From Octopus vulgaris (Eukaryota), in contig OX597837.1 of the NCBI GenBank assembly GCA_951406725.2, positions 23,684,001 to 23,748,000 on the forward strand: a stretch of DNA of 64,000 nucleotides, read 5' to 3'. This document shows positions 6,578-51,814 of this stretch, piece after piece (position 1 is the first letter of the stretch; each line of letters starts with the position of its first letter). The translations under genes were made by a program, and so were the position numbers. The notes beneath the pieces are model-generated. The model was given only the letters and a program-made list of their open reading frames with translations, searched no databases and was not told where the DNA came from.

Positions 6578-7234
6578 GGGAGATTTAGCTGCTATTTCTA
6601 CATTGTAACTGATCTCAATAGTGGTGTTGGCAGTGGTATTGTCTCTGTTTCTGAGCCCAAGGTCAGTCCTGGTTGATCAAAGATGTGCCTGCTGCCAGCC
6701 AGGTTCATCTGTCATTTTTTAGGGTGCTGTCAATGGCTACATCATCCAGTGTGTCTTTCCTTTCTTTAAGTTTGCAAGGTATAACTTGAGGGAGATTTGG
6801 CTGCTATTTCTGCATTGTGAGTGATTTTGCTAGTGGTTATAACATCAGTATTTTCACTGCTTTTGAGCCCTCTGTGAGCCCTAGTTGATCACAGGAGTGC
6901 CTGCTGCCAGCCAGGTTCATCTGTCATTTTTTAGGGTGCTGTCAAGGGCTACATCATCCAGTGTGTCTATCCTTTCTTTAAGTTTGCAAGGTATAACTTG
7001 AGGGAGATTTGGCTGCTATTTCTGCATTGTGAGTGATACTACTAGTGGTTATGACATTAGTATCTTCACTGCTTTTGAACCCTCTGTCAGCCCTAGTTGA
7101 CCACAGGAGTGCCTACTGCCAGCCAGGATCACCTGTCATTTTCAGGGAGGTATCTATGGCTACATTATCCAACTTGTGTTTCCTTTCTTTAAGATTGCAG
7201 GATACGACTTGAGGGAGATTTGGCTGCTATTTCT
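6578..7234. repeat. 212-bp tandem repeat, about 3.1 units
   Basis: GGGAGATTT(A/G)GCTGCTATTTCT recurs at 6578, 6790, 7002 and 7213 with homologous sequence between. Confidence 0.9.
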
Positions 7235-9102: not shown

Positions 9103-10472
9103 TTAAATTCTTTTGTTGCCATATTTCTGTTGAAGTACACTGCCTTTCATTTTTCTGTTGAAGTACACTGCCTTTCATTTTTCTGTTGAAGTACACTGCC
9201 TTTCATTTTTCTGTTGAAGTACAATGCCTTTCATTTTTCTGTTGAAGTACACTGCCTTTCATTTTTCTGTTGAAGTACACTGCCTTTCATTTTTCTGTTG
9301 AAGTACACTGCCTTTCATTTTCTGTTGAAGTACAATGCCTTTCATTTTTCTGTTGAAGTACACTGCCTTTCATTTTTCTGTTGAAGTACAATGCCTTTCA
9401 TTTTTCTGTTGAAGTACAATGCCTTTCATTTTTCTGTTGAAGTACACTGCCTTTCATTTTACTGTTGAAGTACACTGCCTTTCATTTTTCTGTTGAAGTA
9501 CACTGCCTTTCATTTTTCTGTTGAAGTACAATGCCTTTCATTTTTCTGTTGAAGTACACTGCCTTTCATTTTTCTGTTGAAGTACACTGCCTTTCATTTT
9601 TCTGTTGAAGTACACTGCCTTTCATTTTTCTGTTGAAGTACAATGCCTTTCATTTTTCTGTTGAAGTACACTGCCTTTCATTTTTCTGTTGAAGTACAAT
9701 GCCTTTCATTTTTCTGTTGAAGTACAATGCCTTTCATTTTTCTGTTGAAGTACACTGCCTTTCATTTTTCTGTTGAAGTACACTGCCTTTCATTTTTCTG
9801 TTGAAGTACACTGCCTTTCATTCTTCTGTTGAAGTACACTGCCTTTCATTTTTCTGTTGAAGTACAATGCCTTTCATTTTTCTGTTGAAGTACAATGCCT
9901 TTCATTTTTCTGTTGAAGTACAATGCCTTTCATTTTTCTGTTGAAGTACACTGCCTTTCATTTTTCTGTTGAAGTACACTGCCTTTCATTTTTCTGTTGA
10001 AGTACACTGCCTTTCATTTTTCTGTTGAAGTACAATGCCTTTCATTTTTCTGTTGAAGTACAATGCCTTTCATTTTTCTGTTGAAGTACAATGCCTTTCA
10101 TTTTACTGTTGAAGTACACTGCCTTTCATTTTACTGTTGAAGTACACTGCCTTTCATTTTTCTGTTGAAGTACACTGTCTTTCATTTTTCTGTTGAAGTA
10201 CACTGCCTTTCATTTTACTGTTGAAATACACTGCCTTTCATTTTTCTGTTGAAGTACACTGTCTTTCATTTTTCTGTTGAAGTACACTGCCTTTATTTCA
10301 ATGAATTTTGAAAATATGAAAAGTTTAGTGAAAATCATTTTGTCGTTATTAAGCTGTTGTTTGAGACATAAATGAACATGATGTTTTGACGGAAGGTTTT
10401 AATTTAAATAAGAAGAAGTTTGTATCATAGAACCAAGGGCTGCCTCAGGCAGGCTGGTATTAAAAGGGATAA
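9103..10472. mobile_element. piggyBac-like MITE carrying an expanded internal minisatellite
   Basis: Left end TTAA-ATTCTTTT (decayed), right end AAAAGGG-ATAA; 10295-10470 is homologous to the reverse complement of 37838-38395. Confidence 0.55.
9124..10293. repeat. 28-bp minisatellite, 42 units (TTTTTCTGTTGAAGTACA(C/A)TGCCTTTCA)
   Basis: Period 28 measured directly; units counted by eye. Confidence 0.95.
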
Positions 10473-20087: not shown

Positions 20088-20687
20088 TTATCATCAGCAT
20101 TATCATCAACATCATCATTATCTTCCTCATTATCATCATAACTGTTGTCATTATCGTCACGACCATACTTTCCATGCTGGCATTGTTTGGATAAGATATG
20201 GCAAGCCAGCATTCTCTTTTACCTTGATTCCACTGCTCATCAGTTGTTTGAAAATGAAACGAAACCATTGAGATAGAGGACATCATCGTTTATGAGAAAC
20301 TCAAACAAATAGTGACAATATAAGGATATATAGAAGCAAACGTTCACACATAAACACACACTAATATGTACACACACTCACATATATATATATATGTATG
20401 TATGTACATTATCATCATCATTTAATGTCTATATTTCATGCTGGCATGTGTTATGTTTATGTATGTCTGTGTGTGTGTGTATCTGTGTGTCTCATCACTA
20501 TTATCATCATTTAATGCTAGCGTGGGTAGGACAGTTTGACAGGAGCCAACCAAGCAGAAACCTGCACCAGGCTTCATGTCTGTTTTGGCAGAGTTTTTAC
20601 AGTTGGATGCCCTTCCAAACACTAACCTCCCAGTAGAGTGTGCATGTATATTTAATGTTATATATTTAATGTAATATATAATGTAAT

Positions 20688-20910
20688 GCGGCGACTGGCA
20701 GAATTGTTAGCATGCCGGGCGAAATGCTTAGCGGTATTTCGTCTGCCGTTACGCTCTGAGTTCAAATTCTACCAAGGTCGACTTTGCCTTTCATCCTTTC
20801 GGGGTCGATTAATAAGTACCAGTTATGCACTGGGGTCATGTAACCGACTTAATCCGTTTATCTGTCTTTGTTTGTCCCCTCTGTGTTTAGCCCCCTGTGG
20901 GCAATAAAGA
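20688..20910 (+). mobile_element. SINE-C, full length
   Basis: TGGCAGAATTG A-box-like, GAGTTCAAATTC B box, central GTCGACTTTGCCTTTCATCCTTTCGGGGTCGAT, tail TTTAGCCCC..GTGGGCAATAAAGA. Confidence 0.85.
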
Positions 20911-20932
20911 TATATATATACATATATATATG

Positions 20933-21134
20933 TGACTGTGTGTGTGTATCGTTGGCGATTTTTTTTTCCCTCATCTTCCCTTCCTTGGACCTTTCCTTTT
21001 TCTATGTTTCTGACGAAGAGCTCTGCTCGAAACGTTAAATCCTCCTTCTTTCTTTCCTTTCCTGAGCGTCCAATAACACTATACTTGTTCCACATCCTTG
21101 CATTGTTGTGTTTTCTCTTTGTTCATGTTTGGAT

Positions 21135-21138
<4 letters not shown>
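20933..21138 (+). mobile_element. Hammerhead-containing element, family G, probable Penelope-like pLTR
   Basis: Same start and end as 42843-43049; TA-rich on both flanks. Confidence 0.7.
21006..21040 (+). ncRNA. Minimal (dimer-type) hammerhead ribozyme
   Basis: GTTT-CTGACGA-A-GAGC-TCT-GCTC-GAAA-CG-TT-AAAT; intact core, GUU triplet. Confidence 0.7.
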
Positions 21139-21178
<40 letters not shown>

Positions 21179-21242
21179 GGAATGATATTATTAAAATACC
21201 ATCATGAGTGGCAAGCGAATTATCAGCTGTACAGGCAAATTA

Positions 21243-21638
21243 ATAAAATATATACATACAATATTAAATATGTACATGTATACACAAGGGCACTACATTA
21301 ACACCGAGCACCTACATCGCTAAAAATAGAAGTCAAAAATACTTCTGAGCCACCGAATAGTCACAAATCTATTACAGACAAGATAGGAAAAAATATCAGT
21401 GAACAACAATAACGTCTTACCTCTACTGGGTCAGAACAAGCATTTACTTGTCCTGACCCAGTAGAGGTAAGACGTTATTATTGTTCACTGATATTTTTTC
21501 CTATCATGTCTGTAATAGATTTGTGACTATTCGGTGGTTCAGAAGTATTTTTGACTTCTGTTTTTAGCGATGCAGGTGCTCATGTAGTGCCCTTGTGTAT
21601 ATACGTACATATCTAATATTCTATGTATACATTTTATA
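21243..21638. repeat. Long fold-back inverted repeat, arms about 198 and 192 bp, 6-nt loop
   Basis: Arms 21243-21440 and 21447-21638; about 11 substitutions and one 7-nt indel by manual alignment. Confidence 0.95.
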
Positions 21639-51358: not shown

Positions 51359-51474
51359 GAATATAGAGGTGGGGTGGAGAATAGAGGAGACATAGAAAGA
51401 AAATCATAGAGATGGTGTCTGGTTTTAGTTTCAGTTTGTGGGACAGACAGAATCTCTCTTATATATATATAGAA

Positions 51475-51641
51475 GACATCGTGAAGTATATTTGCCACTT
51501 AAATGTGGCTAACCCTTAAGGGTGGATGCTCCTCTAGCTTGTAGCCAGCTGGAGGAGGTGTCCTCCTAGGGTTACAAGCTACAGTAGCATCCACCCTTAA
51601 GAGTTAGCCACATTTAAGTGGCAAATATACTTCACGAAGTC
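51475..51641. repeat. Fold-back inverted repeat, 72-bp arms, centre is itself a stem-loop
   Basis: Arms 51475-51546 and 51570-51641 with about 5 mismatches; centre GGAGGA-GGTG-TCCTCC. Confidence 0.95.
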
Positions 51642-51814
51642 GTGCAGCTACTGTTTATACCTCGCTCAGAAATATAAGATATATATATGTACATAGCTGT
51701 CTGCACATGTGTGTGCAAATATTGATACAATGTGTACGTTGCCATTGTTTGTGTGCAGATATGACCTTCATCTTAACATCTGTTTTATCAAGAGCATATT
51801 GGTTATTTTAGTTT

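Follow-up and report, generated by a model that had tools for sequence, protein, structure and literature searches.

In a stretch of 64,000 nucleotides from the Octopus vulgaris genome (contig OX597837.1; hereafter the window, in which positions are counted from its first letter), two copies of a repeat that carries a hammerhead motif are each followed by a (TA)n tract, a short spacer and a long fold-back hairpin. Do the repeat and the hairpin travel together as one composite mobile unit, with self-cleavage setting the 5′ end of its RNA, or have several elements that target (TA)n piled into the same tracts? At the first locus, the repeat (G1; 20933..21138, + strand) is followed by a 40-nt (TA)n tract (21139..21178), 64 nt of non-palindromic sequence and hairpin H1; at the second, the repeat (G2; 42843..43049, + strand) is followed by a 37-nt (TA)n tract (43050..43086), 55 nt of non-palindromic sequence and hairpin H2. 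A further (TA)n tract lies 5′ of G1 (20910..20931). The order that the original prediction had assigned to both G copies is present at both loci, at the coordinates predicted.

Self-comparison of the 64-kb window recovered only these two copies of G, an approximately 206-nt repeat. They share 88% identity over 201 columns, with 19 substitutions among the 196 aligned positions of the shared body, 16 of them transitions. Each copy holds one hammerhead core on the + strand (21010-21032 in G1 and 42918-42940 in G2). Judged by the features of minimal hammerheads of Penelope-like elements (PLEs) listed in the accessible part of Cervera and De la Pena (2014; PMC4209133), which G matches, the motif in G1 (21006..21040, + strand) is a minimal type I hammerhead made of a 4-bp helix I, the core, an extra A, a 4-bp helix II and a palindromic, loopless helix III; its predicted cut falls after 21036. 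Both copies carry the CUGANGA and GAAA boxes around helix II, an unpaired nucleotide between 9 and 10.1 just before that helix, the G10.1-C11.1 pair, a palindromic 15.2-16.2 segment and a helix I of 4 bp (4-5 bp in the description; one G-U/G-C change separates the copies). Like G, the published minimal motifs are mostly single and dispersed, whereas helix II spans 7-8 bp in the Schistosoma families as against 4 bp in G (PMC4209133, in part). In G2 it is reduced to 3 bp by an A at 42933 that breaks one pair; at this position 86% of the depth in sequencing run X1 carries the pair-restoring G, leaving helix II intact in the family majority. The predicted hammerhead therefore stands as one core per G copy, but in the form of a minimal motif without a helix III loop, and Rfam returned no family at gathering score in the window, hammerheads included, and no hammerhead at E≤10 over either G locus. 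Elsewhere, a hammerhead-core-like pattern match at 35678-35705 (− strand) lacks clear helices and probably arose by chance.

To which class of repeat does G belong? From the start of the core to the 3′ end of G, where (TA)n begins, there are 129 and 132 nt in the two copies. This distance fits the ~100-200 nt of EN+ PLEs and resembles that of Hydra PLE hammerheads (PMC8557442, part of supplement table S2). In the Poseidon PLE of Anolis carolinensis, PAc, the hammerhead likewise lies ~100 nt from the element end; the PAc ORF begins inside the hammerhead (PMC11167929), whereas no reading frame is open in G1 and G2 alike. A coding role for G or the hairpins was rejected, the one open frame of G1 being lost in G2. 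Of the A and B boxes that tRNA-derived SINEs carry at the 5′ end, a consensus for the B box gave no match in G on either strand. Animal non-LTR retrozymes share with G an approximately 200-nt non-coding unit and a type I hammerhead, and for them too dispersed monomers occur and a PLE origin has been proposed (PMC7229834; bioRxiv 10.64898/2026.07.22.740005, sampling three insects and a coral; both in part). Retrozymes are, however, defined in these sources by tandem units and mostly have canonical hammerheads, whereas G has the minimal motif and is a monomer at both loci, with no tandem G units. The apparently very high abundance of G and the 5′ boundary common to both copies give it a look that is closer to a SINE than to a randomly truncated element. 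Scans of metagenome contigs and viral contigs with G patterns gave no match. A literature search whose scope ended short of subscription papers and Repbase found no earlier description of G in Octopus, and the words 'hammerhead' and 'ribozyme' are absent from the accessible main text of Bonar et al. (2026; PMC13282606). For a minimal-hammerhead repeat, G seems unusually abundant, and it is likely a solo pLTR or 3′-end derivative of a PLE. Among other repeats of the window are tandem arrays at 9120-10298 (a 28-nt unit repeated 42 times, 97% matches), 37074-37552 (a 23-nt unit, 21 times) and 6578-7234 (a 212-nt unit, three times).

If hairpins were parts of a G-based unit, they would be found with G. 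Of the 15 local inverted alignments in the window self-comparison, three are compact near-perfect hairpins. H1 (21243..21637) has arms at 21243-21440 and 21447-21637 with 180 matches, 11 mismatches (191 aligned positions) and one 7-nt indel; the arms of H2 (43142..43364), at 43142-43248 and 43258-43364, match at 105 of 107 positions, leaving 2 mismatches. The third, H3 (51475-51641), has arms at 51475-51556 and 51561-51641 with 75 matches and 5 mismatches; around its loop the structure has less regularity than in H1 and H2. Folding z-scores were -38.7 for H1 and -26.9 for H2 (100 and 200 shuffles, none of which folded as well). The three units share one anatomy, namely (TA)n, arm, loop, arm, one-sided extension and (TA)n, with a degenerate TA/TG run on the far side of H1. 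The extensions, which we take to be tails, measure 64 nt in H1 (21179..21242, putatively − strand), 55 nt in H2 (43087..43141, putatively − strand) and 37 nt in H3 (51642-51678, the whole unit being 51472..51678 on the + strand). H3, which serves as the control case, is flanked by (TA)n on both sides and has no G nearby. The coupling suggested by the original prediction thus survives in part: both G copies have a hairpin in the same orientation, but one of the window's three hairpins has the same hairpin-and-tail form without G, which supports independent insertion.

As had been claimed, H1 and H2 are unrelated, sharing no sequence in blastn searches (word size 6, E≤1), and self-comparison found no further copies of either within the window. 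Rfam gave only sub-threshold microRNA-precursor matches on H1 and H2; these reflect the long stems only, and a microRNA-precursor reading of the two hairpins was dismissed. Looser inverted pairs are present at 27551-27866 and 37970-38745, and at 43567-44041 two inverted copies of another SINE family surround (TA)n, being 76% complementary over 478 nt.

The copy status of each layer was examined at locus 2 by comparing the contigs of four public runs with 42345-43560 at 84% likeness. Summed contig depths are rough and yield no copy number; they are used here only to show very many copies. The left flank of the locus was represented by a single contig without differences, at a depth of 47 in run X1 and 35.7 in X3 (about 6 in X7). 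In contrast, summed depth over the body of G rose to 2.0-5.5 million (X1) and 2.0-4.6 million (X3), that over the bin of the 55-nt spacer was 208,185 (X1), 168,612 (X3) and 11,995 (X7), and that over the H2 bins was 67,000-597,000 in X1. Coverage of the spacer and the H2 arms thus exceeds that of the flank thousands-fold, which marks both as parts of a repeat family. Variant tables confirm very many copies of the arms, with one substitution present in 22, 44 and 26 contigs and one insertion in 24, 18 and 8 contigs of X1, X3 and X7, respectively. The spacers had originally been called unique; for the 55-nt spacer this holds within the window only, since it is repeat-covered in all three of these runs. 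The 167-nt mid-copy repeat that forms the next layer of the stack (43373..43539, unstranded, between two (TA)n tracts) had coverage in each of the four runs. Run X13 (organism E), in which G, the SINE and this repeat had coverage, the tail and H2 next to none and the single-copy flank none at all, was not used as evidence, since missing coverage proves nothing.

These depths bear on the idea that the hairpins are local inverted duplications of single-copy host DNA formed when G inserted. Such an origin would account for H1 and H2 sharing nothing and for the lack of further copies in the window. However, H2 and its spacer are multi-copy, with many variant contigs, which rules this origin out for H2, and H3 has no G beside it; for the hairpins as a set we give the idea almost no credence.

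Two details of the coverage concern the internal structure of the H2 family. Going inwards along the arms, summed depth over the two drops about 2-3-fold. One weak X3 contig (depth 186, short side 24 nt) links 43221 to 43282, nearly symmetrically about the hairpin axis, a junction that may be what is expected of a copy with an earlier turn-around and a shorter fold-back. The peak depth of G exceeded that of H2 by rough factors of 9.2 (X1), 5.6 (X3) and 13.7 (X7). Joints that skip G or the hairpin unit were not seen among the 15 joints listed (178 more are unlisted), and, because the comparison passed over the (TA)n that separates G2 from the spacer, contigs bridging G and the tail are unreadable.

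Relative ages offer a second line of evidence. Co-insertion of G2 and H2 would leave the hairpin arms differing about as much as two G copies do. The H2 arms carry 2 differences in 107 positions, as against 19 in 196 between G1 and G2 (Fisher p=0.009). The 6 listed differences of G2 from the family majority likewise translate into about 6.4 expected H2 arm mismatches under co-insertion, for which the probability of 2 or fewer is 0.046. Arm divergence in H1 (11/191; p=0.18) and in H3 (5/80; p=0.48) did not differ from that between the G copies. H2 looks younger than G, a result that is supporting and not decisive, because arm-to-arm repair or subfamily structure within G could mimic the gap. 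In a composite the hairpins would always accompany G and be of equal age with it; in the window, H3 stands without G and H2 has the lower divergence, with H1 indistinguishable from G.

How surprising, then, is the adjacency itself? Both G copies have a hairpin, tail first, within 105 nt across their 3′ tract. With uniform choice of tract, the chance that three hairpins reach both G 3′ tracts is p=0.0015 among all 64 TA tracts, 0.011 among the 24 tracts of at least 16 nt and 0.067 among the 10 longest pure tracts (at least 30 nt), or 0.006-0.23 if either flank of G is counted, and the fact that both tails face G lowers these values by a further factor of 2-4; all are post hoc figures from one window that was chosen for the pattern. 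The (TA)n tracts of G are among the longest pure ones, and a preference for long pure (TA)n would enrich hairpins near G without any co-mobility. The other side of G shows a similar adjacency, as each G copy directly follows the 3′ end of a member of one abundant SINE family (20683..20914 and 42576..42842, both + strand, the latter differing in its 3′ part; the shared part of this SINE occurs 13 times in the window, two of them here), which suggests that stacking is common here. We presume that the copy upstream of G1 belongs to a MetaSINE-like family. The full stack at locus 2 reads SINE, G2, (TA)n, tail and H2, (TA)n, the 167-nt repeat, (TA)n and SINE, and further short units between TA tracts, among the 20 inserts listed, lie at 44812-44927 and 46322-46531 besides 43373-43539.

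The same evidence must be weighed for a composite in which G and the downstream hairpin are co-mobilised, by read-through or template switch, such that G carries unrelated fold-backs and the ribozyme sets the 5′ end of the RNA. The tail-first hairpin at both G copies, with its nominal p of 0.0015-0.067, is what such a unit would produce; G is several-fold deeper than H2, leaving room for many partner families, and the intact helix II of the family majority would suit a working ribozyme. Against it stand H3 without G, the lack of relationship between H1 and H2, the spacer, which forms part of the hairpin repeat and is directed at G, and the younger look of H2. Cleavage also provides little help. 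In the accessible part of PMC4209133, a lone minimal motif showed no detectable cleavage in vitro and dimers cleaved at a low level, and by analogy the single-copy hammerhead of G is not expected to cleave. No hammerhead core was found in H1, H2 or H3 on either strand, which leaves the hammerhead of G without a second motif in the module to dimerise with, and when the entire module is folded, helix I pairs with a probability of at most 0.04. In the system of Frangieh et al. (2024; PMC11167929), hammerhead cleavage needs the PLE protein and insertion is independent of that cleavage. The composite with a self-cleaved 5′ end, as first proposed, therefore fits poorly, and we judge co-mobilisation improbable; the alternative offered alongside it, in which the same tracts took in several elements that target (TA)n, agrees with the evidence.

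Which elements would these be? In the accessible text of Craig et al. (2021; PMC8557442), PLE insertions are highly 5′-truncated, often with an adjacent inverted truncated copy, and have a 30-40 bp tail at one end; Naiad and Hydra elements show a (TA)n bias, with families of both in Octopus according to the supplement, and Naiads lack a hammerhead. Head-to-head inverted PLE junctions, with an optional tail, are also described by Arkhipova et al. (2013; PMC3846280, in part). H1, H2 and H3 share with EN+ PLE insertions such as Naiad and Hydra the head-to-head inverted truncated copy (PMC8557442, in part), seen in all three as a palindrome whose polarity is our reading of its form, as well as a putative tail on one side and the (TA)n target, the insertion site of Naiad, Hydra and Neptune. 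The 37-nt extension of H3 lies within the published range of tail lengths, which those of H2 (55 nt, seen to be repeat-covered) and H1 (64 nt) exceed. The hammerhead that hammerhead-bearing PLE clades have in their terminal repeat is missing from H1-H3, and so, if these are PLEs, they would be hammerhead-less like Naiads or cut short. The three hairpins match no Octopus consensus end in the accessible part of PMC8557442: on comparing G and H1-H3 with the published Naiad/Chlamys/Hydra supplement by exact 10-11-letter motifs and visual check, in which line breaks and divergence can hide matches, 11 of 12 motifs were absent and one matched by chance inside an ORF. G and H1-H3 thus behave as PLE stubs in their anatomy, while their membership by sequence is putative.

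A PLE insertion of recognisable sequence is nevertheless present nearby. At 44812..44927 (− strand), 1.4 kb from locus 2, a 116-nt stub of a Naiad 3′ end (Naiad_Obim / Naiad_Ovul) sits between two (TA)n tracts. By eye, it differs from Naiad_Obim by ~9 substitutions and one 4-nt insertion (about 90% identity), and it ends where the Naiad consensus ends, before (TA)n, with no inverted partner. Its position between (TA)n tracts supports a pile-up of PLEs. In the O. vulgaris assembly, 190 PLE families account for 6.83% of the sequence (Bonar et al., 2026; PMC13282606, in part), and several stubs per 64 kb are to be expected from that share. Pfam detected no RT or GIY-YIG ORF in the window among 129 of the 252 frames of at least 70 aa, the remainder being low-complexity and in some cases redundant. 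Two Pfam matches lie under the cut-off, a weak zf-RVT match at 33003-33332 (− strand; E 0.0017), possibly a decayed LINE fragment, and a weak 7TM match.

The hairpins might also have inserted separately from G as non-autonomous fold-back DNA transposons, MITE-like elements with a TA target and one asymmetric end. Their long, near-perfect inverted arms end at TA, and they have neither a hammerhead nor a match to published Octopus PLE ends. Inside (TA)n, a TA target-site duplication would be indistinguishable. The window also holds a 210-nt unit between TA runs at 46322-46531, a possible MITE with short inverted ends that we take to be Tc1/mariner-like. The inverted repeats of MITEs normally extend to both termini, whereas in all three hairpins a single side bears an extension of 37-64 nt, which lies within the (TA)n boundaries and is repeat-covered in the case of H2. 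Many TIR and MITE families have recently been active in O. vulgaris (PMC13282606, in part). The fall in H2 depth towards the loop and the contig with a shorter fold-back also speak against a fold-back transposon, and we regard this origin as unlikely, if less so than co-mobilisation.

Taken together, these results point to G and the hairpins most likely being separate insertions into the same (TA)n, a reading that we hold with reasonable, not full, confidence: hairpin and spacer together are likely a head-to-head PLE stub, and G likely the solo hammerhead end of another PLE. The PLE origin of G and H1-H3, the order of insertion and the target preference are inferred from these observations. 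The PLE PAc offers a mechanism for tails and for priming on two strands in AT-rich DNA, as its protein, acting on AT-rich DNA in vitro, both cuts the two strands and extends them, and the tail corresponds to the sequence that separates two RT start sites (PMC11167929). According to this model, a PLE protein would nick both strands within a (TA)n tract, and reverse transcription would be primed from two nearby start sites on the PLE RNA. The truncated ends of the two short cDNAs would then join, giving an arm-loop-arm structure with the 3′ ends outward, and the stretch between the two RT start sites would remain as a tail on one side only. The long pure (TA)n left at the 3′ end of the abundant G would make a good landing site for such a later insertion, the hairpin tails would be turned towards G, with the two 3′ ends opposed, and self-cleavage would have no role in building the module.

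What follows for the biology of the octopus depends on the reading. A stack of PLE-type stubs is in itself ordinary, and the loci are most likely genomic debris of a known kind and not a new composite element; were the composite reading true, it would be a new mobile architecture. A more far-reaching version, in which G is an abundant carrier co-mobilised with many unrelated fold-backs, and cleavage, aided by another G transcript or by a PLE protein, frees RNAs whose 5′ end is defined and whose stem is perfect over 100-200 bp, is more doubtful still than simple co-mobilisation; if true, it would be a mobile dsRNA factory feeding octopus hyper-editing or small-RNA pathways. In the accessible text of Porath et al. 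(2017; PMC5625713), the share of loci able to give near-perfect dsRNA is exceptionally high in the octopus (4.4e-3), as is its level of hyper-editing very high, and the repeats involved are not assigned. In the window, which was picked for its hairpins, and with BLAST settings that differ from those of that study, 107 of 12,790 50-nt tiles pass a similar dsRNA test, 74 of them in H1-H3. Given this share and the dsRNA richness of the octopus, PLE fold-back stubs could be a main source of octopus dsRNA.
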